Assembly: GCA_965247265.1 (NCBI GenBank)
Contig: OZ252002.1
Span: 1,882,964 to 1,946,963, forward strand
Source: Gammaproteobacteria bacterium
GTDB lineage: Bacteria; Pseudomonadota; Gammaproteobacteria; UBA4575
Direction of reading: 5' to 3'
DNA length: 64,000 bases
Every line of letters begins with the position of its first letter. Positions within the stretch are counted from its first letter, which is position 1. The position numbers were made by a program, and so were the translations under genes. Under the pieces are notes generated by a model, which made no database searches, was not told the origin of the DNA, and was given only the letters and a program-made list of their open reading frames with translations. Shown here piece by piece: positions 1-64,000 of the stretch.

Positions 1-910
1 GCAGTGCATTTCCACCACTGCGATGAATAGTGCTTGTTAGTTTAACCTTACTATTACCAATGACTGCCTTAGTGGTTAAATTAAAGTAATCACTGGTTAC
101 GCTTAGATTTAAAACATCAATGGTAATGCCTTGTAAAAGTGGATGTCTTAGAAAATCGATAGGCTGCTCATATGGATCATCTTCGCGGTCCTTCACCAAA
201 TCATTGGCCAATTCTAGTGCAATTTTCGGGCTTAGACTTGCTAAAACTTCGGCTGATGCGGTATTAAGATTCAATGCCACATTGGCAGGTAACGTTGTGA
301 CATGAGGAAGCAAAATATTATAAGTATCCTGATCAAACCCTTTCACAAGGCGTAATTCTGAAATATCTGCCATGAGCTGATCGGCCGGTAAGTAAGCAAA
401 TTCCAATCCTATATAAATGTCTCGCTCTGCACCATCTGGACCCGCTGGGTTCACATCCTCGTCAATCCAATCAATAATGGCATCCACCAAACCTGGGTTT
501 AATTCAAGCAAGCTTAATAAACGTGATACGCGCTGTTTCATCGTTTCATCTACTTTTTTGTCTTTAATCAAACTGTTTAAATTAATTTTCCCCTGTGCAT
601 CTTCAATTTTTCCAATGATATATCCGCCCGGTAGTTCAAAAGGGGGAAGTTCAATGGCCCAATCTTCATCTAGACCATCGTAGCTACTGTTTTCCAGATC
701 ACGAGCAAGAATGGCTTGCGTCCATTGTTCAGCACCTTTTGCATAGGCCCATGCTTGGCTACTGTTAATCATATTTTCAGTTCGCCGCATATCTAATTGA
801 TAATTGGCGGCAATTGTCGTAGCCGCTGTTGCAGCAATGGCTAAAACAAGTATAGCTGTGATGGCTGCAACACCTTTATGTCTTTTAAAATTAAAAGTTT
901 TTTGTTTCAT
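1..910 (-). CDS. gspK: Type II secretion system protein GspK (partial, continues beyond window start)
   Basis: Minus-strand frame from ATG at 908-910 translates MKQKTFNFKRHKGVAAITAILVLAIAATAA... with an N-terminal TM helix and GspK-like body. The ATGA start overlaps the gspJ stop. No stop codon before position 1. Confidence 0.75.
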   Translation of the reverse strand, partial: MKQKTFNFKRHKGVAAITAILVLAIAATAATTIAANYQLDMRRTENMINSSQAWAYAKGAEQWTQAILARDLENSSYDGLDEDWAIELPPFELPGGYIIGKIEDAQGKINLNSLIKDKKVDETMKQRVSRLLSLLELNPGLVDAIIDWIDEDVNPAGPDGAERDIYIGLEFAYLPADQLMADISELRLVKGFDQDTYNILLPHVTTLPANVALNLNTASAEVLASLSPKIALELANDLVKDREDDPYEQPIDFLRHPLLQGITIDVLNLSVTSDYFNLTTKAVIGNSKVKLTSTIHRSGGNAL

Positions 911-1521
911 ATTGGTGCTGCAAAAACTCTTTTAATTTCGTCCCAGGGTTCCACTTTAATAGTGACTTCTAAAGCCTTGGGGATATTTACCTGATTTAGG
1001 TTACTATTTAAAGGCGGCCACGTCGTATGCCACTGGTTACTTTGATCAAGATAGCGCATGTTCCACGATTCAACGTTATTTAAAAGTTCTGTTTCAAAAT
1101 ATTCTTCTGCAATGGTGCCATCTAATTGTGCCCAGGTGTATCGAGTAAGTGTGTTTTCTGAAGCCTCATAGCTAATTCTTTGTAGCCGGCTACGAACAAG
1201 ATTTGCAGGATTTCTCCAACCAGAATGCGTAAAGCTTATTGCTTTATCCTCATCACCCACCAAAGCATGTTGTAAGTCACCATACTGATTTCGTACAGAT
1301 CGATTTATAATTTGTCCCATATCGCGCTCAATATATCGAAACGTCATCTGTAGATTCTTTAATCGAATCGCTGATTCTTGAAGGTGTTCTTGGCTATCTA
1401 AAACACGATTTAAACCTCCGTATGCCAGTACACTAACAACGGCAAAAATGGCAATTACAACTACCATTTCAATCAAAGTAAAACCTAAATAATTATTTGT
1501 AGTGTGAGCGCGTATAATCAT
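907..1521 (-). CDS. gspJ: Type II secretion minor pseudopilin GspJ
   Basis: 204 aa. Prepilin-type N-terminus GFTLIEMVVVIAIFAV. Position in gsp operon between gspI and gspK. Confidence 0.85.
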   Translation of the reverse strand: MIIRAHTTNNYLGFTLIEMVVVIAIFAVVSVLAYGGLNRVLDSQEHLQESAIRLKNLQMTFRYIERDMGQIINRSVRNQYGDLQHALVGDEDKAISFTHSGWRNPANLVRSRLQRISYEASENTLTRYTWAQLDGTIAEEYFETELLNNVESWNMRYLDQSNQWHTTWPPLNSNLNQVNIPKALEVTIKVEPWDEIKRVFAAPI

Positions 1522-1526
1522 AAAAT

Positions 1527-1910
1527 TTAGTTAGGCACATGCAGTAAACTAGTTAAGGCTGCATAGCTTTGTGCGTCTTTGTCTTTATCCATCCGCACTG
1601 ATATTTCTACGCGTTTAGTATCAGGATCTTCAGTACCGTCAATTTTTCTTGTCCAATACCACGTTAAACCTGCTAATTTTTCACTACCATCCGTAAATCC
1701 TATTTTTGGTTTAGCAGCGGTAAGTTCAATCTCAGCCATTTGGTTTTGTGCGACCCAATAGGCAAATGTTTTGTCTCGCAAATAAGCAGAATTAACAGTC
1801 GTAGAGGCTACGGTTTTGATTACAGCGGCCATCCCAAGTGCAATGATGGTTAACGCGACCATTACTTCTAAAAGTGTAAATCCTAAATAATGTTTTTGAG
1901 GAATTCGCAT
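1527..1910 (-). CDS. gspI: Type II secretion minor pseudopilin GspI
   Basis: 127 aa. Prepilin N-terminus GFTLLEVMVALTIIAL. Operon position. Confidence 0.85.
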   Translation of the reverse strand: MRIPQKHYLGFTLLEVMVALTIIALGMAAVIKTVASTTVNSAYLRDKTFAYWVAQNQMAEIELTAAKPKIGFTDGSEKLAGLTWYWTRKIDGTEDPDTKRVEISVRMDKDKDAQSYAALTSLLHVPN

Positions 1911-1914
1911 GATT

Positions 1915-2421
1915 TTAATTTACTGCTGCAAATTCTAATGCACCATTTTCTGCAATTTTTAAACGATAGGTATGATCGATCTTGTCTGTGATATTCACAT
2001 AAAAAGGTGTAATTGAACCATCAGAAAGAATATAAACCTGCGGCTTTACATCATCATCTTGCGCATAGGTAACTTTTATTCCTTCTAAAAACAATTTGAA
2101 CTCCAACCCTTCGGGCAAAGTGCGCTCACGCAAAAGGTTGTCATCAGTGACGGGTATCCAGCTAGTTTCTTCTTGATTTTCTGAGTCTAAGTGATAAAAC
2201 GAATAGCTCGTACGTGTAAATACAACACCAAACTCCTCAGAGTTGAATATTGCCTGCTCTTTAGCTAAATCTAATAATGCAGCCAGTTGTTGAGACTTTT
2301 GCTCGAGTCTTTTTCCTTGATTGTCACCAAGGGTAATAGTTGCCGCGGCTACAATCATTCCAATAATGAAAATTACAACCAGCAACTCTATTAACGTAAA
2401 TCCTCGAGATATATAGAACAT
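1915..2421 (-). CDS. gspH: Type II secretion minor pseudopilin GspH
   Basis: 168 aa. N-terminus GFTLIELLVVIFIIGMI. Operon position. Confidence 0.8.
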   Translation of the reverse strand: MFYISRGFTLIELLVVIFIIGMIVAAATITLGDNQGKRLEQKSQQLAALLDLAKEQAIFNSEEFGVVFTRTSYSFYHLDSENQEETSWIPVTDDNLLRERTLPEGLEFKLFLEGIKVTYAQDDDVKPQVYILSDGSITPFYVNITDKIDHTYRLKIAENGALEFAAVN

Positions 2422-2423
2422 AT

Positions 2424-2867
2424 TTAATTCAGGTCAGCAATTGACATATCCTTACTCATTTCTTCACCACCTACTTTTCCGTCAGCTCCAAATGAAAATA
2501 AATCGAAAGCAGTTCCTGATGATCCTGGAATCGCATATTGATATTCATTACCCCAAGGGTCTTTCGGAAGACTGCGAAGGTAACCACCTTGTTTCCAGTT
2601 TTTAGGCTCAGGCGCACCTAGTGGTTGTGTCACGAGGGCTTGTAATCCTTGTTCTGTAGAGGGGTAGTTGAAGTTATCTAATTTATATAAATTTAACGAT
2701 GCTTCAATTGCTCGAATGTCATTTGCAACTCTCACAATTTTGGCATCATCGGTGCGTTGCATCACTCTTGGTGCAACCATGGCGGCTAGCAATCTAATAA
2801 TTACGACTACAACAACAATCTCAATTAAGGTAAAGCCGTGAGTGCGGCTACGTGCATATCTAGACAT
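2424..2867 (-). CDS. gspG: Type II secretion major pseudopilin GspG
   Basis: 147 aa. HGFTLIEIVVVVVII prepilin peptidase site and conserved GspG body. Confidence 0.9.
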   Translation of the reverse strand: MSRYARSRTHGFTLIEIVVVVVIIRLLAAMVAPRVMQRTDDAKIVRVANDIRAIEASLNLYKLDNFNYPSTEQGLQALVTQPLGAPEPKNWKQGGYLRSLPKDPWGNEYQYAIPGSSGTAFDLFSFGADGKVGGEEMSKDMSIADLN

Positions 2868-3100
2868 TTATTTCTCTCTTAGTTATTAACTCGCTGATTA
2901 TTAATGATAAATACTTTAAAATTGTAACAAGAACTTGATTGCCACATGTCCTTCGATAGTCTTTATTGGTTAGGTTAGGCAGATGATTGGCAAAATTAGT
3001 TTACTGTATATTTAACTATAAATTATAAATAGTATAATTAAATACAGTAAGTTATATAACAATATTAAAGTAGGCTAGCTCACTTAAACAGTAGCCGTTT

Positions 3101-4318
3101 TTACTGTCCAACCATTTGGTTTAAATTAAAGATTGGCATCAATATGGCCATTACAATGGCAAGTACAAATACACCCATAAACACAATAATCATAGGTTCG
3201 AGCAGCTTCAATGTGGTGTTAATAATCATATTCAATTCACGCTCTTGCTGAGAGGCGGCACGGTCTAACATATCTTCTAAATTTCCACTTTGTTCGCCAC
3301 TTGCAATTAGGTGCAATGTCATAGGTGGAAAATGGCCTGAGCGTTCCAATGACGTGTGAATATTTGCGCCTTCACTAACACTTACAGCAGCTTCCTGAAC
3401 AGCTTGACGCATGGGCCGGTTGATGATTACTTCAGTAGCAATACGTAGTGAATCGAGTACAGGTACGCCAGAAGCTGTCATGATACTTAAGGTTCGTGCA
3501 AAGCGTGCTGTATTGAGTCCACGTGTGAGCTTTCCAATAATAGGAAGGCCTAAATAAAATTTTTGAACTTTTGCTCGAAATAGTTCACTTTTCATCGAGC
3601 GTTGAAACAGAACTATCGCAATTATTATAGCGATCAAAATAAAAATTCCATAGGAAATTAGAAAGTCACTTGTTGCAATCAAAATGGTAGTGGGTAATGG
3701 GAGCTCTTGACCCATATCTGTAAACACGTTTACAACTTTTGGTACAACAATCGTGACGAGTAAAACTACGACTGCAAGCGCAATTATTAGAAGTACGATT
3801 GGATAGAATAACGCACCAATTACACTTTGTTGTGTTTCTTGCCGAGATTCCGTGTAATCGGCTAGGCGTTTCAGAACGGCATCAAGGTGGCCTGATTTTT
3901 CTCCAGCTGAAACTGTAGCGCGGTACATCTCTGGAAATGCAGATGGGAATTCGTTCAATGCTTTTTCAAGCGAGAATCCTTCTGTAACACGTGATCGCAC
4001 GCCCATGATAATGCTCGACACACGAGGTTTTTCCGTGTGTTTAGCAACAATACGTAAGGATTCTTCGAGGGGAGTGCCCGAATTAACGAGCGTTGCAAGT
4101 TGGCGAGTAAATAATGCCAGATCAGTTGAACTAAACCCTCGTTTAAATAGTCTGCTTACAGATACTTTAGCTTGTCGTTCTTTTACTTGCGCAATTGCAA
4201 GTGGATCAAATCCTTTGGAACGTAGCTGTTGTCTAGCAGAACGCGGACTATCGCCTTCAATGACATCGTTTTTTTCACGGCCGTGACTGTCTAATGCGGT
4301 ATATTCAAATGCAGGCAT
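3101..4318 (-). CDS. gspF: Type II secretion inner-membrane platform protein GspF
   Basis: 405 aa. Two GspF repeat domains with three TM segments. Between gspG and gspE. Confidence 0.9.
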   Translation of the reverse strand: MPAFEYTALDSHGREKNDVIEGDSPRSARQQLRSKGFDPLAIAQVKERQAKVSVSRLFKRGFSSTDLALFTRQLATLVNSGTPLEESLRIVAKHTEKPRVSSIIMGVRSRVTEGFSLEKALNEFPSAFPEMYRATVSAGEKSGHLDAVLKRLADYTESRQETQQSVIGALFYPIVLLIIALAVVVLLVTIVVPKVVNVFTDMGQELPLPTTILIATSDFLISYGIFILIAIIIAIVLFQRSMKSELFRAKVQKFYLGLPIIGKLTRGLNTARFARTLSIMTASGVPVLDSLRIATEVIINRPMRQAVQEAAVSVSEGANIHTSLERSGHFPPMTLHLIASGEQSGNLEDMLDRAASQQERELNMIINTTLKLLEPMIIVFMGVFVLAIVMAILMPIFNLNQMVGQ

Positions 4319-4341: not shown

Positions 4342-5879
4342 TTAAATGACAATATCTTCTTTCGTTACGCGCATCACTTCTTCTAGCGTAGTGTCTCCTT
4401 CAAGCACTAAGCGCACTCCGTCTTGACGAATGCTATGTGTATGCAGATGTGCATATTTTTCTAGCTCTTGTTCTGCGCCCACATCATGAATCATTGTGCG
4501 CATGTTCTCATCGATGGATACCAATTCATAAATTCCTGATCTACCTGAATAGCCAGTACTGTTACAGGCATTGCATGAGCCTGGTGAATAAATAATGGGC
4601 GCATCATTCATTGCTACACCTGCTTGCGCCATTCTTAGTTGCTCATATTCCACTGAACTTGCGGTATGTGAAATTTTGCACTCATCGCACAACACCCGCA
4701 CTAATCTTTGCGCCAATACCGCGACGAGGACTGAAGCTAATAAGAAGGGTTCAACCCCCATGTCACGCATACGAGTGATAGCACCGACTGCTGTATTCGT
4801 ATGCAAGGTAGAGAACACCATATGCCCGTTAAACTTGCTTGCACTGCAATTTGCGCTGTTTCAAAATCACGAATCTCACCAACCATCACAACATCAGGGT
4901 CTTGGCGCAAAATAGCACGCAGACCTCGTGCAAAGGTCATGTCTACCTTTTGATTTACTTGAGTTTGCCCAATGCCATCTATGAAATATTCAATAGGATC
5001 TTCAACTGTCAGTATATTGCGTTTTTTATCATTAATTTCACTTAATGCTGCATATAGCGTTGTGGTTTTTCCTGATCCTGTTGGGCCGGTTACCAACACG
5101 ATACCATGTTGTTTTTCTATCGATAATTTAATCTTTTTGTGAATTTCAGACTGCATGCCGAGGTGACTTAAATCTAAACGCCCTGCTTGTTTATCTAGCA
5201 AGCGCAACACCACACGCTCTCCATGCCCAGAGGGTAGGGTCGATACACGTACATCTACGGGTCGTCCGGCAATGCGCAATGATATTCGACCATCTTGCGG
5301 TAAGCGTTTCTCAGCAATATCAAGTTGTGCCATAACCTTTATTCGCGAAACAACTAATGCACCAAGATTCCTTGGTGGTTGCAAAACTTCACGCAATACA
5401 CCATCAACACGCATGCGAACTGATAATCGAGATTCAAATGATTCAATGTGAATATCAGATGCATTCTCTTTAACGGCCTGTGTTAACAAAGCATTAATTA
5501 AACGAATAATTGGAGCATCATCGTCTGCGTCCATTAAATCTTGGGGTTCAGGTAGTGCTTCGGCAAGGCTTTCTAAATCAAGGTCATCTTCGAAACTTTC
5601 CATCATGGCGAGTGCGCCTGATGCGCTTTCGTCGTAAAGCTGCGTGAGCAATTCATCAAACTCTTCGTCTGATAAGGTGCGGATGTTTAATGGCTTGCCA
5701 ACAAAACGTCTGGCTTCTGCTAAGGATGGGGGTTTAACATCTGGACGCTGAAATATCATTACACGCCCATTGATTTCATTTCCAATTAGAATGCCATGCC
5801 GTTTGGCAAAACTAAATGGCGGCCTACGGACTTCGCGAGGTGCAAATGATGGTTGTGCTTTCTCGGCTTCCATGGTCAA
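4342..5879 (-). pseudogene. gspE: Type II secretion ATPase GspE, disrupted by a 1-nt deletion
   Basis: N-terminal ORF 4737-5879 ends ...AVQASLTG then leaves frame. C-terminal ORF 4342-4821 starts [16 protein letters not shown], the conserved His box. Walker [10 protein letters not shown] is present, as is the tetracysteine motif CDECK...CNAC. A missing C at about 4828 (ggcatatgg where ggccatatgg is expected) joins the halves. Confidence 0.8.
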
Positions 5880-5887
5880 TTGAATTT

Positions 5888-7997
5888 TTACTCAACAATA
5901 ATTACATCAGAATCAGAAGGTATAGAAACGTTTTCAACTTCAACTTCTTCTAATTCAACATTTTGACCATCTTCAACAGGCATGGTTTCAACTACAGGTG
6001 TTAGTTCTAAAAGTTGATCAACCGATACAGTTGGGCTTACCGAACCGCCGCCAGGTATTTGTGTAACGAGTTCATCAAGATCGGGGAATAATGTTGCACC
6101 TTCTTTAATTAGGCCGCGATCATCAAGTTTTGCATCTAATTGTCTGGCTTGGAGATACTTATACTTAGAATTGGTTGCTAAGCTGCCTAGAGCTTCATCA
6201 CGAATAATAATTGGATGAATAAACACCATTAAGTTTTGTTTATCTTTTGTTGTGGTTGTAATTTTGAACAAGTGCCCTAACAGCGGTATGTCGCCTAATA
6301 ATGGAACCTTTTGTACTACGTCACGATATGTATCTTCAATTAATCCACCTAACACAATTGTTTGCTGGTCTCTTACAAGCACACTTGTTTTTATTGCGCG
6401 TTTATTTGTAATCAGATCGGTTGCAACAGTTGAACTCGACAGGGTAGAGGCTTCTTGTTCAATATCTAGCTGGACACTATCTCCTTCATTAATTTGGGGC
6501 GTAATGCGCAACGTTATCCCTACATCTTGACGCTCAATGGTTTGAAACGGATTAACAGAGGTATCCGTACCAGATCCTGTGTTGGTGAATGAGCCTGTTA
6601 CAAACGGAACATTTTGAGCAACCACAATTTCAGCCTCTTCGTTATCAAGTGTCAAAATAGAAGGTGTTGATAAAATATTGGTCGCCGCATCTACTTCTAA
6701 GGCGCGTAATATCGCTGCCCAACGATCTTTACCACTTCTCTTTGCAGCGCCAGCAAAAAAACCATTGCCAATCCCTGTAATCGTATCGACAACTTCATCT
6801 GCAAAAAGACTGGGCAAAGTAAGATTGCTGTCCAGAAATCCAACAGCGGGAGTACCACTTCCTGATCTGTCTGTGGGCACATATGCAAATTGGAAACCTA
6901 GGTCTTTGGCAAGGCCTGTGCTGACTTCTGCAATGATTGCATCGACCAAGACTTGTGCACGGCGAATATCAAGTTGTTTGATGATACGGCGCAGACTTTC
7001 GAATTTTGCAGGGGATGCGGTAATAATTAATGCATTGGTAGTTTCATCGGCTTGAATATCGACATCTGAATTTTGAGCAAATGTTGTGACAGTTCCACCT
7101 TGTTGCTGTTCGCCTTGGGCTTCAAATTGAGTAATGCCCAGTAATATGGGTGCAAGCTCGGCTGCTTTGGCATACTTTAAGTAGACAACTTGCGAGTTGC
7201 CGCCGCCTTCAAGTGGGGTGTCTAAATGTGCAATTAACCCGCGAATTCTTAAACGTGCTGCGTTATCTCCTGACAACAAAATACTGTTGGAACGTTCATC
7301 TGCTGCAAGCGTAGCTTGACCCGGCACTTGTCCACCTTGTGCGTCTTTACGGTTAAGTGAATTGATAATTTGTACCACTTCATTTGCGGACGCGTGTTGA
7401 AGTGGCACGACTTCAATTTCTTGGCTATAGGGCCGGTCGATACGACCAATAATTGTAATTAAGCGATGTATATTTGCAGCACGGTCTGAGATCACGAGCA
7501 CATTACTACTAGGGTAGGCTGCGAGATGCCCTTGTTGAGGAACAAGGGGGCGTAGAATAGGTACCATCTGAGCAAGCAGGTACATTCTTTATAGAAATAA
7601 CGCGTGTGACGAGCTCATCACCGGTGCCTTGCTAATCACCACTCGCTGTTGCAACAGGTCCTTGCTTAGCATTTACATCTGGTAGGATTTTTACAATTTC
7701 ACCTACTTGTACTGCTGCATAGCCATGAACTTGTAAAACGGAGAGAAATACTTGATACACCTCTTCACGGTCCATGGGTCGTGCAGATATCACAGTGGCC
7801 TTAGCTTTTACGCGAGGATCTACTACAAAGTTTCTATCTGTAGCCGCCGCAACCGTTTCTATAAATGATCGTATATCGGCATCTTTGAGATTCAGCGTCA
7901 CACCTGTTTCAGCAAGCGATGTACTGAAAATTACAAAACATGCAGTAGCAATGCATATTAATTTACAAATCTTAGATTTTAAAAACATATATTTCAT
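5888..7997 (-). pseudogene. gspD: Type II secretion secretin GspD, disrupted by an in-frame TAG plus a frameshift between the N0 and N1 domains
   Basis: ORF 7632-7997 encodes a signal peptide plus secretin N0 domain (VTLNLKDADIRSFIETVAAATDRNFVVDPRVKAKATVIS). It ends at a TAG, after which the same frame continues GDELVTRVISIKNV. The body of the secretin (5888-7585, 565 aa, N1-N3 and secretin domain) is in another frame. Confidence 0.8.
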
Positions 7998-8148: not shown

Positions 8149-9039
8149 CTATTGAGTTAAATCCTGAAACAGTGTCAATTCAGTTCCTTCACGAATAACA
8201 ACCATTGTAATCTCATCGGCAGTGGCTAGCGTTTGTAGCGCTTTGGGACCCTTATCGGGTTGATCCAAAGGGATACCATTAAAATTGATGACAACGTCAC
8301 CAGGTTGGAAGCCCAGCGCATAAAACATATCTGGATTTTTACTTGGGATGACCTTGTAGCCTTGGAATTCACCGGTTTCTTCATTTTTCTCAGGTGTAGC
8401 ACGGATGAATTCAGTGAGTCGAGTTGGGTTTTTCATGACTTCTTGGCGAAATTGCCCGAGTGATTCAAAGTCACCACGAGCCTGTGTTGCCTGTGGTTGT
8501 GGTGTGGATCGAGGCGTTGCTACAGGCTCATTTCCAAAACCCTTGGCATTCGCTTTAGGCAGGCGCAGCGTTTCCATGCGAATATCGCGCTCTAAAATAA
8601 CACGGTCGGGATACACAGCATGCAATGTTGCACCACCAGGAATATCATCACCGAGTGAATAGTGTTTTACCTTGTTTGCCCCGCTTGAAATAATGGCATA
8701 GCCATATTCTTTATTACCAGCCAGGACACCTAATAATTTTAGGTTCAGTGTTGTGTCAGGCGCGTTCTCCACTTTTTTAGATGCATTGGGTATGACTTTT
8801 CCCATGATGTGCATTTGAGCAACATTGCGATCATAGTTTGGCCGGGGTTGTGGCTTAGCAGGGTTGGTGGCTGCTGTTGGGGCTGTAGCCGTAACTGTAT
8901 CGACGCCTGAATTAAAAAAGCTCAAAAATACCTTTACCAAAGTGATAATAATTAAGGCAATTAAGGCTAGATTAACCAGACGTGGTAGCTTCGTCTCTAT
9001 TTGAGGCCAAAGCGTATTAAATGAAGCCGCGAATTCCAT
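8149..9039 (-). CDS. gspC: Type II secretion protein GspC (N-terminal TM, C-terminal PDZ-like domain)
   Basis: 296 aa. TM helix near the N-terminus. The C-terminal region GFQPGDVVINFNGIPL...EITMVVIREGTELTL is PDZ-like. Lies upstream of gspD. Confidence 0.65.
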   Translation of the reverse strand: MEFAASFNTLWPQIETKLPRLVNLALIALIIITLVKVFLSFFNSGVDTVTATAPTAATNPAKPQPRPNYDRNVAQMHIMGKVIPNASKKVENAPDTTLNLKLLGVLAGNKEYGYAIISSGANKVKHYSLGDDIPGGATLHAVYPDRVILERDIRMETLRLPKANAKGFGNEPVATPRSTPQPQATQARGDFESLGQFRQEVMKNPTRLTEFIRATPEKNEETGEFQGYKVIPSKNPDMFYALGFQPGDVVINFNGIPLDQPDKGPKALQTLATADEITMVVIREGTELTLFQDLTQ

Positions 9040-9202: not shown

Positions 9203-9278
9203 GTCCCCATCGTCTAGAGGCCTAGGACATCGCCCTTTCACGGCGACAACAGGGGTTCGAATCCCCTTGGGGACGCCA
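9203..9278 (+). tRNA. tRNA-Glu (anticodon UUC)
   Basis: gtccccatcgtctagaggcctaggacatcgccctTTCacggcgacaacaggggttcgaatccccttggggacgcca. Near-identical in architecture to the E. coli tRNA-Glu cloverleaf, anticodon loop CTTTCAC. Confidence 0.9.
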
Positions 9279-9689: not shown

Positions 9690-10815
9690 TTCTGACTTAA
9701 ATTTGCCTGTTTTTCTGCCCGTTCCCGGTGCGCTTCAGCGAAAACTCCACCGGTGTTTTGTAACCCAGCTGGCTGTACGGCCTTTCGTGATTATGCATCT
9801 CTCTCCATCGGTAAATCTTGATCCGTGCATCGTCCAAAGACAAGCACCAGTTCCGGTTCGAACATTCCAGCCTCACACGGGCATTCAATGCCTCGATCAA
9901 CGCATTGCCCGCGGGCTTTCCAGGGCGTGATAAGTCCAGCGTCACACCGTTGGCATAGGCCCACAAGTCCACTTCTTTCGACACGAACCCCAGGCCACTG
10001 TCGTCTGCTCCCTGAATCGTACGCGGGATCTCGTACTCCCGGGTAGCCCGCTCCAGGGTGTGTACCACATCATAGCCCGTATACCTGCGGCGCACCTCCA
10101 TCGCAGGACTTACACGAGTAAAGTGATCCACTATCTTAACACCCTCAGCCTCTGGCCATCCAAGGTCTGGGCCGCCATACAATCCATGCTCCAGCAGTCA
10201 TTCTGGAAACGGACCGGGGTAATACGTGCTTTCCGCAGTTTCTCCTGCACTCGCCGCCGTGGGCGTTTGTGCCGCACCTGCAGCCCCATCTCGCAGTACA
10301 ATCGATAGACCTGCTTGCGACACTGACCGCCCACAGCCTTCCCGACGTAACAACGCATGTATGCGTAGATACCCGTACCGGGTGCGGGTGGGTCCGCGCA
10401 ATGTCCCGGATCCGCTACTTCAATGCCACCTGTTCCACCTTGCGTGACCGGTACAGCCAGGTCTATCGCGGCAAATACACCCCCTCGCAAGCCCGCCTGG
10501 CACTCACCCCAAAACCATCCATCCACCCGGCGCGCCAACTCCCTCATGCGCGCAGGCCTTAAAGCTTTTTTCGGATCACCTCCTACAGCATGTGACGGTC
10601 CAGGCTCAAGTCCGCCACCCTCTGCTTCAATCAATGGTTCTCAACCTCCAGCTTCTTCAACCGGCGTACCTCTGAAGACGCCAATCCCCCAAACTTCTTC
10701 TTTCACCGGTAACATGTCTGCTCCGAAATCCCCACCTCCGTGACACCCATACCGCCCTCATGCTGGTGCAGCGCATAGGCAATCTGCTCCTCGCTAAACT
10801 GCGACTTCTTCATGC
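9690..10815 (-). mobile_element. Degraded IS3-family insertion sequence (orfA/orfB remnants with multiple frameshifts and stops)
   Basis: The minus strand from 10812 encodes MKKSQFSEEQIAYALHQHEGGMGVTEV..., an IS3-family OrfA HTH start, interrupted by stops. The ORF at 10131-10634 and the ORF at 9697-10182 carry the IS3 OrfB integrase-core (DDE) homology (…KTPVEFSLKRTG). The element is GC-rich relative to the flanks. Exact ends are not determined. Confidence 0.75.
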
Positions 10816-13254: not shown

Positions 13255-13632
13255 CTACCAATTTAACAATTCTGATTCAGTCGGTTCGATCTGAGCCGCA
13301 AGATCTGATGTAATAAATTCTAGCATTTGCGCAAGTCTTCGGCGCACAATTGAATCGTTTTTATCCAAACCTAAAGCTAATGCCTCACGGTACATAACCT
13401 CTTCACGAATTTGCTGATTAATAAGGCCTTTTAATTCGGCTTGAGAAGATAGGCGTTGCCACCTTTTTTTCCATATAGCATTCAAGCGATCGATATCTGC
13501 GATAGAGAAGATTATGCGATTGTCACTATTATTAGTATCAACATCATTATTGATCAAAGAATATGTGACAAAAAGCAATCCTCCGATCACCAAAAAATGT
13601 AATAGCGGCTCACGCAACCATTTTTTTAACAA
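13255..13632 (-). pseudogene. Truncated periplasmic PPIase-like (SurA/PpiD N-terminal-domain family) protein, N-terminal 125 aa only
   Basis: MLKKWLREPLLHFLVIGGLLFV... TM anchor, followed by a conserved region (IREEVMYREALALGLDKNDSIVRRRLAQMLEF). The ORF ends where homologues continue for >100 aa further. Confidence 0.45.
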
Positions 13633-13662: not shown

Positions 13663-13926
13663 TTAGTTGAATACTAAAATGAAAGACGACCGGCCCGCAG
13701 CGCAAGATTGCTCACCATAATAATCAATGAACATCATTCCTTCTTTGGCGATACGATCAATATTAGGCGTGTGATAGCCCATTAAGCCTATGCTATAGGC
13801 ACTGACATTGGTTTGACCAATATCATCCCCCCAGATGACTAAGATATTAGGTTTATCTGCTGCTGACGCTGTTATTGAGAAAATTGAAACGAATAGAATT
13901 AAACACAATTTGTTTAGCGTTATCAC
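13663..13926 (-). pseudogene. Sulfatase N-terminal fragment
   Basis: 87-aa ORF with a signal peptide, [13 protein letters not shown], and a C-x-A-x-R-S formylglycine-type motif (SCAAGRSS). The rest of the ~500-aa enzyme is absent. Confidence 0.45.
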
Positions 13927-47998: not shown

Positions 47999-48011
47999 TC
48001 CTCCGTAAACA

Positions 48012-49701: not shown

Positions 49702-51980
49702 TTAACAATGACCAGCAATCTTTAATGATTTTTCAACGTAATCTTGTAGTTCACCACTATCAATTAATACGCCATCTCTTGGTTGTCCATCGTCGTGATG
49801 ATATCGTCTACAATACTCATTTATTTCCTCTAGCTCTTCATGCAATTCCCAGAGTATGTGACCGCCACCAATCTCTTTAATTTTTTCTACTATGCTACCA
49901 AGTGCATCATTGTTACCAAAATGCCTTGGGTAAGCCAATTTGCAATACCCTTCTAAAACTATTCTCAATTTTTTAATAATCTCACCTTCATCGCCTGATC
50001 CATCTGATAAATATTCCAGTAACGCATCGATATCTTTGTGATATGTCCATTTAAGCGCCTCTTCAATGTCCCATTCCGTGATCATTGTATTTTTTTCTTG
50101 CACGCGTGTTAATTGAAGTGTTTTTTGTTGTCCTGGACTTAAACGTTCCCAAAGCAACCCCAAAAAGTTGGGATCATGAGATAAGACGATAACTTGTTTA
50201 CATCGTTCACCACATTTTTTTATTTGATATACAGTTTGAGACTGTCTAAAACGGTCTAAACTCGTAAAAGGATCATCAAAAATTATAATTTTATTAGATT
50301 TCTCGTCATCTTGTTCAATCTGAGCCAAAAAAAATGCCAAAGCAAGAGTGCTTCTATCACCAGAACTCAAAGTATTTTTAAAACTGGGTTCACTTAATGG
50401 AGTTCTTTCGTCCCCTAGTTTTATAGGCCGATCGTTAATAATAATGTGATAGCTAGAGCTGGCTACACCGCCTGCAAAAGTATGTGATGTTTTGCCAATT
50501 CTGAAACCTGCGTTTATTTTCCTTAGATATTCATTAATAATGTTTTCGTAATCCCTTACTACGTTATTGCTATGATTTTTTAAGGCAGTTTTCTTCTCTT
50601 CTTTTTCATGATCTAAAATATTTTTTTCTGTAATAAGATCACTATATTCTGAACATGCTTCTACTACCTCTTTTTCATGGCGCTTTTTTGTTGCTATTAG
50701 TAATATAAATTCGTTTTCAACGGTTTCTAAAAGTGCACCCTCTACTTCTTCTTTCTTTAAACTGATGTTTTTGTTAGAAGCAATAATACTTGCATTATAG
50801 GCATCTATTATTGTCCCTAACTCTAATAGATTAGATAATGCGTCTGAATACGTATTGTCTGTTTTAATCTCTTCAAGAGGCGATTGAACTTTTTTCTTTA
50901 GCAAATTTAATGTTATTTCTCTATATGCTTGGAGAACTTTTTCAATATCTAATTTTTCATTTATTTTGGGTAATTCAATTTCGCAATATTCCTGCCAAAA
51001 TTCACATTTACTTACATTTTTTTCTATTTCCGCTGTAATCTCAGATATTACTCTGTCGCTAAACCCTATTTGTATTTTGCTACTTTTCCCATTTATCGAT
51101 GCCTTTAATTCATTATACGCATCGCTAAAATGTGTTTTATAAGCATCTATAAGTGCTATCCCCTCTGTACTCTGTCCACAGAAGCTACATGCATCATCTT
51201 TTAAATATTTTAAGCCGTCTGATAACCATGTTTCACCTGATTCATCCATGTTATGTTTAGCTAAATGTGCACTAAGCATGATTTCTGCGTCACTACTAAC
51301 CCCCTCAATACCTTTTGATAGAATATCTGTAAAATCGTTATCTATCTTAGGTAATTCTATTGTTTTTAATAATTGCTTCTTTTGTATAACATCAGATATT
51401 TTTAAAGATGCTAGTTCTTTTTCTATTTTTTAATTTTCTGTTCTATATTTTCATCTGCTTCAAGTTTCAAAAAATCATTCAGGTTAATACGTTCTTGAAA
51501 AAAGGCGGAAACTGCAGTTCTAGCCTCAGCAATTTCCCTATTTTTCTCTCTAACTTCGCCATCAATTTCATTAATACGTCGCGCTATAGAGACACCTTCT
51601 TTTCCAACAATAACCTCAGCAAGATTTTTTCGTTGTTCTGTACCAATAATTTCACCAGAAAAAACATTGTCTGAAATAAATGTATTATCAAAAATTTCTA
51701 TTTCATTGATGTTATCTGTCCAAATACCGTTTTCAAATCTTATATTGCCAGTGTCAAATAAAATATTTACTTCTGGTTGATCTTGTATCCCTAACGTTTT
51801 GCGACCAAATATATGATTACAATCATTAGTTTTAAGTGATCTTAAGATTGCACATAAGGTTGTTTTCCCGCGTCCATTTTCAGCAAATATAAGATTGTAA
51901 TCTCTAAGTGTTACATCGCCAGCCGAATTAGAATTCAAAAAACGACCAATATTTTTTATGCTTACAAATTTAGATAACAT
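49702..51980 (-). pseudogene. Large P-loop ATPase of the ABC/SMC-like AAA_13 type, frameshifted
   Basis: ORF 51423-51980 has N-terminal Walker A ENGRGKTTL. ORF 49702-51279 contains long coiled-coil stretches and the C-terminal D-loop/Walker B IIIFDDPFTSLD. The roughly 140-nt junction is out of frame. Confidence 0.55.
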
Positions 51981-51990: not shown

Positions 51991-53279
51991 TTAAAAATCT
52001 CCATCATCCCCGATATTTTTATCTGGCCCAGCTATCGCGATTAGCTCCAGTCCTTCAATTTCTTGAATGGCTTTACCTGCAATGCCCTGAAGATCACCAT
52101 ACATACCAACTGTTGATTCAATAACACCCTGAATCTGAGCTTCGCGTTTAGCCCATAAACGCATTGTTGATTTGCGTTCCTTATCCAAATCCGTTTGCAT
52201 ATCCGTAAATTTTTCAACAATGGCTTCAATGCGATGTCTGAACTTAGGCCCTGTTAAATACTGATAAACAAGTTCCATTTTTGTTTCTTGACCTTCCTGT
52301 GCTAGTCGAGTATTCGCAACTTCAATGAGCGATTGGCGAAGCGTAATTGCAAGTGGCATTGCATAGCGTGGCTGTGTAATACAGATGCCATCAATATTTC
52401 CAAATGTTTCAAGTTCTTTGGGGAGTGCATTAGACACAAGTACAGCAATCACTGCATTTGCTGCACGTCGATCCCCTCTTAGCTTTGCAAGCCAGCCATC
52501 ACTCCAGTTTTTTGTTCTTTTAGACTCCCAAAGAATCGCACCACAAACTTGGCCTGTTTGTGAAACAACTGCTTGTAACACATCACCACCAAACTCGCCT
52601 TTTGCAACCGGTTCTATGTTATCAAATGGAAACTTGGTTTTTAGATTTGTCTCAAGCTCTAATTCAAGCGCTTCGCCTTGTAGCTGTTGAGAGCCCTGCT
52701 CTGCTTTTCTTTTTAAATCTTCAATTTGCCGCTGCATGGAAGCGATTTGTTCTTCCTTTTCGGTAACCCTTAGTTTAAGGTCCTCTTCCGCTTCTAGTTT
52801 TGCTTTTTTATGAACTTCTCCAAGGGATGCCTGAATACGCTTTTCTGCGGTAAGATCAAGTTCACGTTTTGCATCGTCTAATTCTCGTTCCTTACGGAGT
52901 AGATCTGCCTGAGCCTTCTGAGCTTCTTCTAGCTTTTTGTCTCGTTGTTTAAAACTTCTTGTAATTCTTCTACTTGTTTTGTTTTATTTTGTATATCTGT
53001 TGTCGCAGCCAATTTTGCTTTCTTCGCTTCTTCCTGAGCGATAGCAGCACGCTCAGTTTTTAATTTTTCAGCAACTTGTTCATCTATAGCCTTCCGTGCA
53101 TCGGCAACTGCTCTTTGTTGAGCACGCAATTCTGCTTCGCGTTTTGAGATATCAGATTCTTTTTCAGCAATCTTCTTTTCGTATTCTGTACGAACAGATT
53201 GAATAAGTGGTGCAGCAAGTGATTCTGTTAGTTTGATCTCTGTTTTACAGCTAGGGCAGACGATTGTTGGTTCTGTCAT
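51991..53279 (-). pseudogene. DUF2130-family protein, frameshifted
   Basis: ORF 52929-53279 encodes an N-terminal zinc-ribbon CPSCKTEIKL followed by a Lys/Glu/Ala coiled coil. ORF 51991-52737 carries the conserved C-terminal domain. The 190 nt between them are in another frame. Confidence 0.5.
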
Positions 53280-54992: not shown

Positions 54993-55985
54993 TTGATTGC
55001 CGCCGCCGAACGCAAAGCGAAAAAACAACATGATGTTGAGATTTATGAAAACCAATTCGCCAGCATTGTGCACGAATGGTTTGCAAAAAAATATACCAAC
55101 TTAAATCCAAGTTATGCCAAGCGTGTATGGCGTGCATTAGAGAAAGATATTCTTCCTTACATTGGAAAATTACCGATCACCAAAATTGACGGTCCTGCAC
55201 TACGCAAATGTTTAATGAAAATTGAAGAACGTGGCGCACATGAAACCGCGCATCGCACCTTACAAATCTGTGCACGCATTTATGGCTACGCGAATGCCTG
55301 CGGCTATTGCACTCATGATCCAACTCGCGGCATGAAAACCGTCCTCACCCCTGCAAAAACGGAACACTTCCCTGCCATTACCGACCCCAAACTCTTAGGT
55401 GAGTTATTACGTGCCATGGAGAGTTACGATTCACTCCTCACCCGCTCAGCCTTATTTGTGGGCGCCTATACCTTTGTGCGTCCGGGTAATTTACGCCAAG
55501 CCGAGTGGCAGGAAATTAGCTTGGAAGACAAGGTGTGGAAGATCCCTGCAGAGAAAATGAAACTTAAAAAACCGCATATCGTCCCGCTTGCGAATCAAGT
55601 GAAACGCATTTTTGAAGAACTTCATCCTCTCACCCATAAAAGTGACTACGTGTTTCCAAGTGTGCGCGATCGACGTCGTCCCATGAGTGAAGCCACAGTC
55701 AATGCAGCATTAAGACGCATGGGTTACGGCACAGATGAAATGACCGGGCACGGTTTTCGACACATCGCCTCCACATTATTAAATGAACAAGGCGTTTGGA
55801 ATGCCGATGCAATTGAGCGCCAACTTGCACATACCGATCGCAGTAAAATCAGAGCAACCTACGATCACTCGAACCACTTACCGGAGCGACGCAAAATAAT
55901 GCAAGCCTGGGCGGATTATCTTGATGGCTTGCGTACCGGGAACAATGTCGTGTCGTTCAATGAACTGAAAATGGCCAGTTCATAA
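54993..55985 (+). pseudogene. P4-type tyrosine integrase lacking its N-terminal ~100 aa
   Basis: The sequence begins inside the family at ...AAERKAKKQHD...FASIVHEWFAKK...LPITKIDGPALRK. The catalytic C-terminus HGFRHIASTLLNEQG...ERQLAHTD...Y is present. There is no ATG and no DUF4102-like arm-binding domain upstream; the frame opens just after a TGA. Confidence 0.7.
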
Positions 55986-56584: not shown

Positions 56585-56821
56585 ATGAAAAACCTACCCG
56601 ACACGGGATTTCTGAGAATCCAACAAATTATTGGTAATCCTAAAGCAACCCCGCCGATACTCGCTATTATTCCAATCGGTAAATCAACGTGGTGGCAAGG
56701 TGTAAAAACGGGCCGATTCCCTAAACCAATTAAGTTATTTGAACGTATTACGGTATGGCGCGCAGATGATATTCGCACCCTTCTTGAATCTTATGAGATA
56801 TTCTCGGATGCTGAATCATGA
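56585..56821 (+). CDS. AlpA-family phage-type transcriptional regulator
   Basis: FLRIQQIIGNPKATPPILAIIPIGKSTWWQGVKTGRFPKPIKLFERITVWRADDI is the AlpA HTH pattern. Confidence 0.7.
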   Translation: MKNLPDTGFLRIQQIIGNPKATPPILAIIPIGKSTWWQGVKTGRFPKPIKLFERITVWRADDIRTLLESYEIFSDAES

Positions 56822-57285
56822 GCAAACTAACCGATAAACAAAACGTATTTATTCAAGAATACTTGCTAGATCTAAATGCAACACAAGCTGCAATCCGTGC
56901 AGGATATAGTGTTAAAGCTGCTTCAGAAATTGGCTATGAGAACCTGAGAAAACCTCAGATTCAAAACAAACTTGAGGATCTAATAAATGAGAGAGCAAAT
57001 CGATTAGAAATTGATTCAGATTGGGTAGTTAAAGAACTAAGGGGTCTATACGAATTATGTAGAGTGCACAGAGAGTATTCTACTGCTCTTAAAGCCTTAG
57101 AATAGATGGGTAAACACCTTGGTATGTTTAGTGAAAAAGCAAATCCATCGAACAATGTGCAGTATATTTTATCAGACAGGCCAATGACTGAAGAGGAGTG
57201 GGAAGAAAATACTATAAGGATCCAGAATCTTCAAATAATCATTAGCGTAAATAGATATTTAGACATTTCTAATTGCACGAAATGA
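56818..57285 (+). pseudogene. Phage terminase small subunit (P27/Terminase_2 type) with an in-frame TAG
   Basis: The N-terminal FIQEYLLDLNATQAAIRAGYSVKAASEIGYENLRKPQI is the family hallmark. The frame reads ...KALE-TAG-MGKHLGMFSEK..., continuing the family sequence after the stop. Confidence 0.6.
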
Positions 57286-57310: not shown

Positions 57311-58705
57311 TTAGGATGTTAAGTATGCTTGATATATCTCCGACGACTTCAGAATATAGCTTCGCCCTTCAACTACAAACCCATCCAACTTATGTTCTAT
57401 GGCAAATGATGAAAGATCATCTATTTTGTTTATAAATCCTTTACCATTGAAGTTCAGTGAAGTGTTGCATAAGACTCCGTAACCAGTACGTTTCTTGAAT
57501 GCTATTAACAAGTTGTACAAGTTTAGATTTGTCGCAGACGACACTGTCTGAATTCGAGCAGTTTTATTCACATGAGTAACTGCCGCTAGCGCATCCATCG
57601 TTACATTATAAGTATAAAGCATATGCGGACTCTCGTGGTTACAACCAAACCAACGTGCACCATCTTCTTCTAAACATACAGGAGCGATAAGGCGAAATTG
57701 CTCGCGCTGTTTGATCTCATTCAACCGCGTTTTAGTGCTTTCTCGGAATGGCGCAGCAAGAATTGAACGGTTACCTAAAGCGCGCGGCCCGATTTCATAT
57801 TTACCATTGACCCACCCAAGAATAAGGTCTTTTGCCAACATGTCGGCAATCATCTTGTCATCAGCTTCGTATAGGTCATACAGTTTCTCATTGAAAGACT
57901 CGGTTGTGTCGAATTACAGGCCTGAATAGACATTCCAATCGATTTCTGGATTACCTGTATAGTGAAACTGAGCATCAATGGCTGTCCCAATTGCAGAACC
58001 TGAATCGTTAGCAACGGGTGGCACGAAGACCTCTGGAAAAAGGCCCGATTCCTTCCATTTAGTGTTCCAGTCACAATTCAGACCACATCCACCAGCGATG
58101 ATCAGAGGAATTCTCTTATTCATGTTCGCTTTAGCGAATTGATAAAAAATATCAAAAATTTTGTCACTAAAAATACCTGCAAAATTCCGAAATTCTGGAT
58201 CATCTATCCCTACGTTGTAGTATCGCGAATGCTCAAGATCTTTGTACAAACTTAGTCGAATATGTGATGAACCCAATAGAAAGTCGATCAACTCAATCTC
58301 TTCTGAAGAAGGTGTGCTCCGATTCGAGAAAGAAGCTAAAGCCATAAGTTTCCCAGCATCTGAAAAGCGAGAAAAGGGTGCATTCTTTGGGAAGGTTGGA
58401 TCGGCCAAGCCGTAAATCGAGGTATAGCGATTACCAGGCTCATTCAGAACATTGGCAAGCAGTGTTATTTTCAGACTAGAATCAATTTCGTAGAAAGCTC
58501 CGATCGCACCTTCCCAAATTAACGCATAACAAGGATCACCTTTCGGTAGATTTGACATACCGAAAGCACAGAGTAAATGCGACCGCTCGTGAGATGACGA
58601 AAAATAGTGGACTGGCTTTCCTAAAAAGTGCCGTTTGTCTTGTATGATGTCATCCATAGTCAAGCCACGATAACCGACATAAGGTTGTGGCCCGAACAAC
58701 CTCAC
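57311..58705 (-). pseudogene. NodU/CmcH-family carbamoyltransferase, N-terminally truncated and with an in-frame TAA
   Basis: The body matches carbamoyltransferases (SHERSHLLCAFGMS = HxxxHxxxAF region, C-terminal domain). The ORF opens with a GTG and lacks about 70 N-terminal residues. A TAA at 57914-57916 is followed in frame by FDTTESFNEKLYDLYEADDKMIADM... Confidence 0.6.
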
Positions 58706-58765: not shown

Positions 58766-59170
58766 TTAGACTTGTGAGCGCAGTTCAACGGTGTTGCCTT
58801 CTGGATCTTTAATATAAACTGATCTGCCTGTACCTTGAGCACCATATCGATCAGAAAATTCACCAACGTCAATGCTGTGAGATTTGAGGTAGTTTCTTAT
58901 TTCTTCTTCACTGATCATCTTCAATTACAAACAAAAATGATCCATATTATTTTCTGTTTTACTGGGTGGCCCACCACCTAATTTTCCTATTTTACTTTCT
59001 ACTCTAACAAAATCTATTAAAGCATTCCCAGCTCTTAATTGTGTTATACCAAATTCTGGCGAAGATTCTCGCTCAACTTTACAACCTAAAACTCCGGTAT
59101 AGAAATCGAGCATTTCATTTATTTTTGAAGCTCGTAAAACTACATGATCAATTCCAACTATCTCAAACAT
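58766..59170 (-). pseudogene. VOC (glyoxalase/bleomycin-resistance) family protein with an in-frame TAA
   Basis: MFEIVGIDHVVLRASKINEMLDFYTGVLGC...HFCL, then TAA, then LKMISEEEIRNYLKSHSIDVGEFSDRYGAQGTGRSVYIKDPEGNTVELRSQV in the same frame. Confidence 0.6.
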
Positions 59171-62235: not shown

Positions 62236-62996
62236 TTATGTCTGCTGATTTAATTATTTTATTGCTTCCTGCCTTTGTAGCTGGGTGTTTAGTTGCATCA
62301 ACACACGTGCCTCTTGGTATTGAAGTTTTAAAACGTGGAATTATTTTTATCGATCTAGCGATTGCACAAGTCGCGGCGATGGGTGTTGTGATTGGCCACG
62401 TGATTTTCCACAATTCAGGACAATTTCAATCACTTGCGCTTGCTTTAGTATTTGCCTTATTAGGGGGCGGATTATTTGCTTGGCTAGAATCAAAACAGTT
62501 TAAACATTTAGAAGCAATGATCGGCGCAGTTTTTGTAGTGAGTGCATCCATTACGATTCTTCTTCTTACCAAAGATCCTCATGGGATTGAAGCAATGGAA
62601 AAATTACTGGCCGGACAAGTGCTTTGGGTAAAATGGTGGCCAGATTTAGTCGTTACTTTAATCGTTTATTTAATGATTTTACTGGTCTGGTTTCGACGAA
62701 ATATGAATAATTCATCTTTATTTTATTTCATATTTCCAATTGTGGTTACTTTTTCAGTTCAGATCGCTGGTATTTATCTAGTGTTTGCAAGCTTGATCTT
62801 GCCCGCAATTGCTACCTGCCAAATTAGCGGGAAATCTAAGTTACTAAGTGGTTACGCTGTAGCATTGCTGAGCGTAACTCTAGGATTAGTTTTCGCAGTA
62901 TTCTTTGATCTTCCAACTGGGCCTATGATTGTATGCACATACTTTGTAATATCCATGTTGCTGCTTCTAAGTACTTATAGATTCATCAAAATTTGA
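62232..62996 (+). CDS. Metal ABC transporter permease, ZnuB-like (ABC-3 family)
   Basis: 254 aa, polytopic. Start overlaps the stop of the binding-protein gene. Confidence 0.75.
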   Translation: MIMSADLIILLLPAFVAGCLVASTHVPLGIEVLKRGIIFIDLAIAQVAAMGVVIGHVIFHNSGQFQSLALALVFALLGGGLFAWLESKQFKHLEAMIGAVFVVSASITILLLTKDPHGIEAMEKLLAGQVLWVKWWPDLVVTLIVYLMILLVWFRRNMNNSSLFYFIFPIVVTFSVQIAGIYLVFASLILPAIATCQISGKSKLLSGYAVALLSVTLGLVFAVFFDLPTGPMIVCTYFVISMLLLLSTYRFIKI

Positions 62997-63206
62997 TTGA
63001 TAATCCAATATGATTTATTTACAGATATTTCGGTACAAGGAAGTTCAAAGAAGTTTATCTACAGCCAGATAATTTGAGGGCCAGTATTGGGGCAAAATTG
63101 CATGTGATATTGAATTAAATCTATATAATTCAATTACATAAGTTAATTATCAAATAGCTACCGCCCCAGCTAAATGGCACTAATTTTGTTTTACTTATCC
63201 GGGAAT

Positions 63207-64000
63207 CTAGTCCACACCATCAATAAACGTTTCAACGAATGATTTTATCTTGCCAATAATGCGTTCTGTGATCGTGCCGCGTTCTTTGAGATTTGGACGC
63301 GTTTGCATGATGGCTATAACATCATCCCGTAATGGTGTTTTCTCGGTAAATAAATAATCGCCAATTACTTTTTGTAAGCCGTCAACATCAAGTTCCTCTG
63401 CCTCACTCAATTCTTGTACAGCTTTTTGCTTTTCTGTGTTCCAGTATTTCTCAAATGCTTCTCCTACATCGCCATCTTTGGGTATATCTGGGAAATGCTC
63501 TGCAATAAAGCGTTCGAAAAGTTCCTTTTTGCTGCGCAATTGCGTTTCAGAATCAAGAATACTAAGAATCGCTTTATGTTGTTTCTCCTGATCGGCTGGC
63601 TTGGCAGCCTGCATATTCTGCAATAGCGCAATGATATAGCTGACATTGATTTCATCTCGGTGAATCAACTCCAGCTCAAAATCTATATCATCAAGGACCG
63701 AGACTTTTTCCTTCTGTTGATTGGTTTTTACCTTGTCATACAAATCGAGACATTTGCTTTTGTAATCTTCAAAAAGTTGCTCATCCATAGCCAGATCATC
63801 AAAACTAAACTCAGTAAAACAGTTGAGTACGTTTTTAATGCGTATGATTTCTCGGAAAGCTTGGATAAAACTGGCTTCGTCTTCTTCAGTATGTAATTCG
63901 TTCACACTATCAACCGTCGGAGCAATTGATAGCAATTCTGCAACTGCCTCGGCAAACCGCTCAATGTATTTCTCATAGGGCTGCAAAGTGATTTCTTCAA
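63207..64000 (-). CDS. Type I restriction enzyme R subunit, C-terminal region (partial, gene continues past window end)
   Basis: C-terminal domain pattern of HsdR (DUF3387-like: ...FDDLAMDEQLFEDYKSKCLDLYDKV...). The ORF is open to the window edge. Confidence 0.55.
   Translation of the reverse strand, partial: EEITLQPYEKYIERFAEAVAELLSIAPTVDSVNELHTEEDEASFIQAFREIIRIKNVLNCFTEFSFDDLAMDEQLFEDYKSKCLDLYDKVKTNQQKEKVSVLDDIDFELELIHRDEINVSYIIALLQNMQAAKPADQEKQHKAILSILDSETQLRSKKELFERFIAEHFPDIPKDGDVGEAFEKYWNTEKQKAVQELSEAEELDVDGLQKVIGDYLFTEKTPLRDDVIAIMQTRPNLKERGTITERIIGKIKSFVETFIDGVD

Follow-up and report, generated by a model that had tools for sequence, protein, structure and literature searches.

The 64-kb window analysed here (64,000 nucleotides of contig OZ252002.1; positions are counted from its first base) contains numerous broken genes. 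These are best explained, with a probability of about 0.6, by local decay of horizontally acquired islands, with type II secretion and outer-membrane functions recently lost as well, rather than by reduction of the genome as a whole. The window is a mosaic of conserved backbone and two blocks of horizontally acquired, non-syntenic DNA. The backbone runs from the type II secretion genes gspK to gspC (1-9039) through a tRNA-Glu gene and a sulfur-oxidation cluster (18.7-27.8 kb) to a series of genes from HAD to fur (27.9-39.6 kb), and its gene order is common with relatives. The acquired blocks are a 9.4-kb insertion beside tRNA-Glu (9.3-18.7 kb) and a mobile/defence region (~41-59 kb). Pseudogenes, island decay and secretion loss are a well-known kind of phenomenon; the observations below concern where the lesions lie relative to synteny, what types they are, and whether relatives carry them.

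Window proteins, gene fragments included, were found by exact protein look-up to be on record from one contig of 2,764,221 bp. The closest species-level relatives are uncultured gammaproteobacterial metagenome-assembled genomes (MAGs), with protein identities to the window of 50-95%; among the relatives found, none that is cultured is close. Comparison loci were taken from the closest complete relative, the 2.67-Mb chromosome OZ244982.1 (L001 and L082), from KW1-S05_58 (L002), from the coral-skeleton genome IP29b_bin.12 (L005), from a metagenome contig of a sample named DONG22 (L081) and from a further relative (L004). KW1-S05_58 is a denitrifying sulfur oxidiser of deep-sea ferromanganese-nodule sediment (PMC10367259). 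None of the compared relatives was seen described as an obligate symbiont. The genome belongs to an uncultured marine sulfur-oxidising bacterium that is apparently undescribed.

All 17 loci that the first-pass annotation had listed as disrupted are broken in the sequence as given, out of ~65 loci in the window (26%), whereas none of ~131 open reading frames (ORFs) at syntenic loci in relatives is broken (Fisher p ~1e-9). The damage clusters in acquired DNA, where 13 of 32 loci are affected (41%) versus 4 of 33 in the backbone (12%; Fisher p = 0.012), so that the simplest account is erosion of acquired DNA that is no longer useful. The four backbone loci (gspD, gspE, fadL and nodT) were compared separately with the 0/131 of relatives (Fisher p = 0.0014). 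In a reciprocal tblastn screen the same four were the real genes split or truncated in the window only, and no split gene was found in the 21-43 kb screened from each relative; the flags raised in relatives were mainly short opposite-strand shadow ORFs, the others being start-codon extensions and hits of low coverage to variable genes. By an identical method ORFs covered 79% of the window and 82-91% of the relatives' loci, and intact genes alone covered ~53-56% of the window. Broken down by part, ORF coverage was 88-89% in 1-9.3 and 18.7-28.6 kb; it fell to 80% over 28.6-41.2 kb, where fadL and nodT lie, to 70% over 9.3-18.7 kb and to 47% over 41.2-46.4 kb.

The lesions comprise in-frame TAG or TAA codons (gspD, carbamoyltransferase, VOC), single-base indels outside long homopolymers (gspE, gspD, TAXI, fadL, DUF2130), deletions, and large truncations (NodT, sulfatase, PPIase-like, P4 integrase, terminase, carbamoyltransferase, fadL). 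The earlier statement that they are not just homopolymer indels therefore holds, 14 of the 17 loci being broken in ways beyond the long-homopolymer type. The proposed course of events is that the acquired blocks are no longer maintained and that the ordinary bacterial mutation spectrum (single-base indels, nonsense substitutions, small and large deletions) erodes them, which would account for 13 of the 17 broken loci. Separately, the lineage would have recently inactivated type II secretion through gspD and gspE, and would also have lost the outer-membrane proteins FadL (an older loss, with several lesions) and NodT (by deletion).

The type II secretion operon lies at the left end of the window and was read against its L001 orthologs as follows.

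1..4318, minus strand: gspK, gspJ, gspI, gspH, gspG and gspF, intact by single-frame full-length matches to L001 orthologs and by synteny
4342..5873, minus strand: gspE pseudogene, its ATPase split by a 1-bp deletion (GGCCAT to GGCAT) near 4825
5888..7997, minus strand: gspD pseudogene, with a TAG in frame at 7632-7634 and one base inserted (GCTGCT to GCTTGCT) near 7574
8149..9039, minus strand: gspC, intact, matching residues 1-299 of the L001 ortholog in one frame

The gspK gene is partial, being cut by the window edge, and gspL and gspM would fall outside the window. The Pfam T2SSE profile is divided over two gspE ORFs (positions 2-236 and 238-370), and gspE is a single ORF of 508-533 aa in five relatives. 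In gspD the N0 domain stands on an ORF of its own, apart from the remainder (reference: L001 GspD, 703 aa). Both genes are unbroken in the five closest relatives. Three lesions in all were found in gspD and gspE, and the remaining genes (gspC and gspF-K, gspK as far as the window edge) are untouched; a complete gspC-K set with an intact GspD secretin and GspE ATPase is not present. Identity to the L001 orthologs is 95% for GspE and about 77-82% for GspD. Because the lesions are few, the gsp genes are still 77-95% identical to their orthologs, the other gsp genes are intact and the proteins are not evolving faster, type II secretion appears to have been lost recently.

The two other backbone pseudogenes encode outer-membrane proteins.

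28615..29788, minus strand: fadL pseudogene, with at least two frameshifts (one of them G to GG), one in-frame stop, and the C-terminal ~200 codons gone
39953..40255, minus strand: NodT/OEP remnant, the last 95 of 466 residues (372-466), matching Pfam OEP positions 99-187 of 187

The Pfam Toluene_X match to fadL falls in three stretches. Aligned with the syntenic FadL of L082 (439 aa), the gene yields residues 1-87, 87-171 and 171-241 in alternating frames, and residues 242-439 are lost. Its several lesions and deletion make the fadL loss look older than that of gsp. The NodT remnant shares 89% identity with residues 372-466 of the L081 OEP protein, which suggests a recent deletion. Intact counterparts occupy the same positions in one relative each (fadL in L082, OEP/nodT in L081). 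A further difference lies next to nodT. In L081, ribBA (DHBP synthase/GTP cyclohydrolase II) and a flavodoxin-like gene separate the OEP gene from the pair formed by a small-protein gene and fur (L081 2125-4850), and ribB is also found in L082 (3084-3728); no trace of ribBA or the flavodoxin-like gene was found anywhere in the 64-kb window (corresponding gap, 39556-39952).

The first acquired block begins at a tRNA gene. In four relatives (L001, L002, L004 and L005) a dsrE-like gene follows tRNA-Glu within ~450 bp, so the 9.3-18.7 kb that separate the two in the window are an insertion.

9203..9278, plus strand: tRNA-Glu(UUC), called by ARAGORN and Rfam, left edge of the insertion
9700..10815, minus strand: dead IS3-family element, its HTH_Tnp_1, HTH_21 and rve/rve_3 domains each in a different frame and its orfA interrupted by three stops
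13255..13632, minus strand: N-terminal fragment of a PPIase-like gene, with a breakpoint near 13267 beyond which homologs extend further
13663..13926, minus strand: 5' fragment of a sulfatase gene, covering Pfam profile positions 1-57 of 301 only
14586..15864, plus strand: TAXI-family solute-binding gene with a frameshift near 15400 (GATAAACCCTGG)
16289..16781, plus strand: glycine-zipper protein gene, frameshifted in an A8 run at 16651
17324..18510, plus strand: lipase-like (alpha/beta hydrolase) lipoprotein gene that has lost ~70 bp internally, out of frame, near 18120

ARAGORN and Rfam found tRNA-Glu to be the sole RNA gene of the window. A repeat of the tRNA-Glu 3' end was sought as the attachment site of the insertion and none was found; no integrase is left in the insertion, and its cargo consists of metabolic and envelope genes, not phage genes. 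Nothing recognisable of the PPIase-like gene follows the cut at ~13267. The first TAXI ORF matches NMT1_3 (positions 1-241 of 289) and TIGR02122 (9-271 of 320), and the second continues in another frame. Glycine-zipper homologs are of ~165 aa, and the C-terminal 45 aa (residues 122-166) are readable in the second frame. Homologs of the lipase-like hydrolase are single proteins of 415-446 aa that span both ORFs, with ~23 residues absent at the junction.

Part of this island was recovered independently. A contig of a Joint Genome Institute (JGI) metagenome (L083; metagenome 3300023223, contig Ga0255802_10020976) is 98.5% identical to window positions 13267-14130 over 864 bp, and the sulfatase fragment, with its stop at an identical position, is common to both. 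At 13267 L083 diverges: its PPIase-like gene runs 120 bp further and is followed by different genes (ZnuA, MacB-like). Since L083 continues into other genes at this point, the island and its decay differ between strains.

A GC-rich block (9600-12300) was observed around the IS3 remnant in this 39% GC genome, with GC contents of 49-61% over the remnant and 43-50% over an amidohydrolase gene. The block is foreign DNA and probably arrived with the insertion sequence (IS).

The second acquired block begins where synteny with L081 and L082 stops, at the NodT remnant (~40.3 kb).

42291-42338 and 42873-42920, minus strand: two 48-nt tRNA-like 3' fragments forming a direct repeat (79% identical)
47555..49139, plus strand: HTH_17 (excisionase-like) gene and an apparently intact tyrosine recombinase (Pfam)
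49284..49605, plus strand: HigA-like HTH_37 antitoxin gene with one base added in an A7 run (~49408), from Pfam and a three-frame reading
49702..51980, minus strand: AAA_13 / PADLOC PDC-S06 candidate defence gene with one base missing from an A6 run (~51425)
51991..53279, minus strand: DUF2130 gene with a 1-bp frameshift near 52940, in an A3/A4 run
54993..55985, plus strand: P4-type integrase without its N-terminal arm-binding domain, only Phage_int_M and Phage_integrase being matched (Pfam)
56818..57105, plus strand: first half of a terminase small subunit gene (Pfam positions 1-71 of 141)
57311..58705, minus strand: carbamoyltransferase gene with an in-frame TAA at 57914-57916 and ~120 N-terminal residues absent
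58766..59170, minus strand: VOC/glyoxalase gene, full length apart from one in-frame TAA at 58925-58927

Read as the reverse complement, the 48-nt repeat resembles the 3' part of a tRNA from anticodon loop to acceptor (GGTTCGATTCC T-arm). Neither copy was called a tRNA by ARAGORN or Rfam, relaxed thresholds included, and no intact tRNA gene lies nearby; the fragments are probably attachment-site leftovers of integrated elements. The true start of the HigA-like gene is at 49284, and no toxin gene was found upstream of it. The AAA_13 locus matches Pfam AAA_13 at 13-144 and 240-660 and PDC-S06 at 1-187 and 252-730 of 784; the DUF2130 profile (15-253 of 255) falls on the downstream ORF of its locus. 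No arm domain was found upstream of the P4-type integrase in any frame, and no remainder of the terminase gene downstream of its first half. The Pfam N and C domains of the carbamoyltransferase stand on two ORFs in the same frame, and its alignment with PDB 7xb6_A (597 aa) runs from chain residue ~156 in a weak stretch, with a significant stretch at 324-574. Once the stop is masked, the VOC gene covers the whole Glyoxalase profile (1-121 of 121).

An acquired origin of the two blocks is supported by the integrases, HTH_17, HigA-like, PDC-S06, DUF2130 and terminase genes in 46-57 kb and by the GC-rich dead IS3 element in the first block; the ~40.3-59 kb region also holds a GC-rich inositol-phosphate-synthase-like gene. 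Features of a decaying island are thus present, namely an insertion next to a tRNA gene relative to relatives, an integrase and mobile-element genes. Cryptic prophages and decaying tRNA islands of Escherichia coli K-12 offer a close likeness: there too the insertion lies by a tRNA gene and is absent from relatives, and a truncated integrase, half a terminase gene, an orphan antitoxin, broken defence genes, atypical GC and low coding density occur together. Unlike those islands, the tRNA-Glu insertion has no recognisable attachment-site repeats and carries metabolic and envelope genes in place of phage genes.

Six-frame translations with stops masked were searched for known families in 12.3-13.3, 39.6-40.7, 41.2-46.5, 53.3-55.0 and 56.5-57.3 kb, and no remnants beyond fadL, VOC and IS3 were found. 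ORFs of 114-451 aa without a Pfam match were recorded at 14236-14580, 16794-17177, 40685-41167, 53533-54561, 55996-56493 and 59972-61327; NCBIfam gave no match either for those at 14236-14580 and 53533-54561, and PADLOC gave none for those at 53533-54561 and 55996-56493. At the right end, the C-terminal domain of a type I restriction enzyme R subunit (63207-64000) runs off the window.

The core genes said in the first reading to look intact are so: fccAB, soxYZ, dusA, the pepA-like gene and the ABC transporter are unbroken, and their lengths equal those of relatives where checked.

18719..27780: sulfur-oxidation cluster, intact (dsrE-like, Tll0287-like cytochrome, fccB, fccA, napC-like, DUF302/methionine-rich genes, yeeE-like, soxZ, soxY), from Pfam, synteny and identity with relatives, and exact protein look-up
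29968..39555: GT2, DUF2064, dusA, pepA-like, ABC ATPase and permease, AAA/FHA, P450, fur and a small conserved protein, intact, with order and lengths as in L081/L082

Beside fccAB and the napC-like gene stand three neighbouring genes for methionine-rich proteins (23034-25650, plus strand), which are kept in L001, L004 and L005. The first ends in DUF302 and the middle one (24412-25101) has tandem MMNPMMG(G) repeats. The trio may be a metal- or sulfur-related periplasmic module.

Errors in a long-read assembly or its consensus could create apparent frameshifts in genes that are whole in the organism. A one-base change in homopolymer length is the typical residual error of long-read consensus, and three loci are broken solely by such a change (AAA_13 in A6, HigA-like in A7, glycine zipper in A8), so these three could be assembly errors. 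At the remaining 14 loci the damage consists of substitutions that create stop codons, indels within runs of 1-4 bases, the ~70-bp deletion, or truncations hundreds of bases long. Of about 18 point lesions, only 3 fall within runs of at least 6 nt, and just 3 of the 90 homopolymers of that length inside recognisable genes coincide with a lesion. Several genes are lesioned more than once, while 34 kb of adjacent genes are lesion-free. L083, an independent assembly, aligns with the window without a gap and agrees with it at all nine runs of 5-7 nt, three T7 runs included; this confirmation covers its 864 bp only. JGI metagenome contigs were also searched for conspecific gspD, gspE, fadL, lipase, TAXI and VOC genes, and only relatives at up to 80% identity were found. 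Most lesions cannot be homopolymer errors, and assembly error as the general explanation is very improbable. Recoding, or an alternative genetic code, was considered for the in-frame stops and rejected: TAA and TAG also end intact genes, and the same loci are frameshifted or truncated.

The first-pass annotation had gone on to propose ongoing genome reduction under relaxed selection, for example in a recently host-restricted lineage. The lesions on which this was based are real, and four backbone genes are broken here where relatives have none; the inference to the whole lineage goes beyond the window. Put at its fullest, that proposal holds that the lineage is recently host-restricted or of small population, is in an early stage of genome reduction, and carries throughout the genome a pseudogene load of which the window is representative. 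It would explain why a quarter of the loci are broken and little more than half of the window is intact coding sequence, why backbone genes are broken that are intact in all compared relatives, why every lesion type is represented, and why ribBA and the flavodoxin gene of relatives are absent. An unreduced genome also fits an early stage: in PMC3056288 and PMC4760077, recent insect symbionts are described as eroding at a genome size not yet reduced.

Several observations speak against this proposal, first among them the concentration of breakage in acquired DNA. IS content, suggested earlier as a check, shows no expansion within the window; there is one IS3 copy, itself dead, and a search for dispersed repeats of at least 30 nt in the window returned none apart from coding repeats and the one 48-nt pair. 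The GC content of the window (0.394) lies within the 0.365-0.419 of relatives and so is not lowered; a GC shift was accordingly rejected as a sign of mutational decay. At 2,764,221 bp versus 2,667,808 bp for OZ244982.1 the genome is not smaller than that of its closest complete relative, and a named relative, KW1-S05_58, is a sulfur oxidiser living free in sediment. Proteins do not evolve consistently faster: in rate comparisons over only ~2,900 aligned sites, the distance of Gsp proteins to the outgroup equals that of relatives, and the terminal branch comes out shorter with Gsp proteins but longer with sulfur-cluster proteins. The data do not demonstrate reductive evolution across the genome, and reduction of the whole lineage, which has partial support only, is doubtful, if a serious contender. 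Early or partial erosion remains compatible with the data, four backbone pseudogenes where relatives have none being above background.

Known cases of reduction were compared on the same points. Serratia symbiotica, Sodalis glossinidius and Mycobacterium leprae, in which erosion follows recent host restriction, resemble the window in an unreduced genome size, in many frameshift, stop and deletion pseudogenes, in a functional coding density near 50% (here, locally) and in loss of secretion and envelope functions. Genomes of this type are eroded everywhere and show massive IS proliferation and faster protein evolution. Here, in contrast, there is one dead IS, GC is unchanged, no consistent rate increase is seen and most lesions lie in acquired DNA. 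The vesicomyid clam symbionts are, like this organism, sulfur-oxidising gammaproteobacteria with fcc and sox, and their reduction includes the loss of envelope and secretion functions. They differ in having gene-dense genomes of ~1-1.2 Mb with few pseudogenes, as against 2.76 Mb here and nearest relatives that are environmental MAGs (one of them from deep-sea sediment). Context on reduction in chemosynthetic sulfur-oxidising symbionts is given in PMC7473567 and bioRxiv 10.1101/2020.02.01.930370.

Nine of the 17 broken genes encode exported, periplasmic or outer-membrane proteins or parts of a secretion machine (GspD, GspE, sulfatase, PPIase-like, TAXI, lipoprotein hydrolase, glycine zipper, FadL and NodT), and all four backbone losses are of this kind, which points to lost selection on secretion and envelope functions. 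The same bias, with the recent date of the gsp lesions, would be expected if these genes had been inactivated for advantage, through escape from phage or host recognition or through cost saving in a new niche. One sequence permits no test of selection, neutral loss after a niche change gives the same pattern, and genes without an envelope role are broken too, so adaptive loss is judged quite improbable. Envelope-biased breakage is compatible with a change of niche, whether its consequences were neutral or adaptive, and the loss of secretion would reflect such a change.

Local island decay combined with recent loss of secretion and outer-membrane functions is therefore preferred, the islands presumably decaying because they are of no use to the cell. 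Some points weigh against it. The backbone excess (4/33 versus 0/131) indicates that something beyond island decay is going on, and island decay as known from E. coli K-12 leaves these four pseudogenes unexplained. Pseudogenes usually make up 1-5% in free-living bacteria, and 12% breakage in the backbone exceeds this. The window is 2.3% of the 2.76-Mb genome, and the remainder may be equally eroded. Finally, the repeat search of the window gave no clear attachment-site repeats at either island.

A more far-reaching possibility, regarded as speculative and rather unlikely, is that a lineage with free-living sediment relatives stands at the very start of a lifestyle change. It would be specifically dismantling its secretome and outer-membrane uptake and efflux (the type II machine, exported hydrolases, FadL and NodT) with energy metabolism intact, and its pseudogene load would be similarly raised across the genome. 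To our knowledge, nearly all chemosynthetic sulfur oxidisers studied are either intact or already reduced; if the load proved to be genome-wide, this organism would show, as few others do, the earliest stages of erosion in such a bacterium. Should the load prove restricted to islands, which the evidence favours, the finding has practical value. The public record lists the fragments as separate genes, by which gene counts are inflated and metabolic reconstruction could be misled; this organism should be scored as lacking type II secretion, FadL and NodT.

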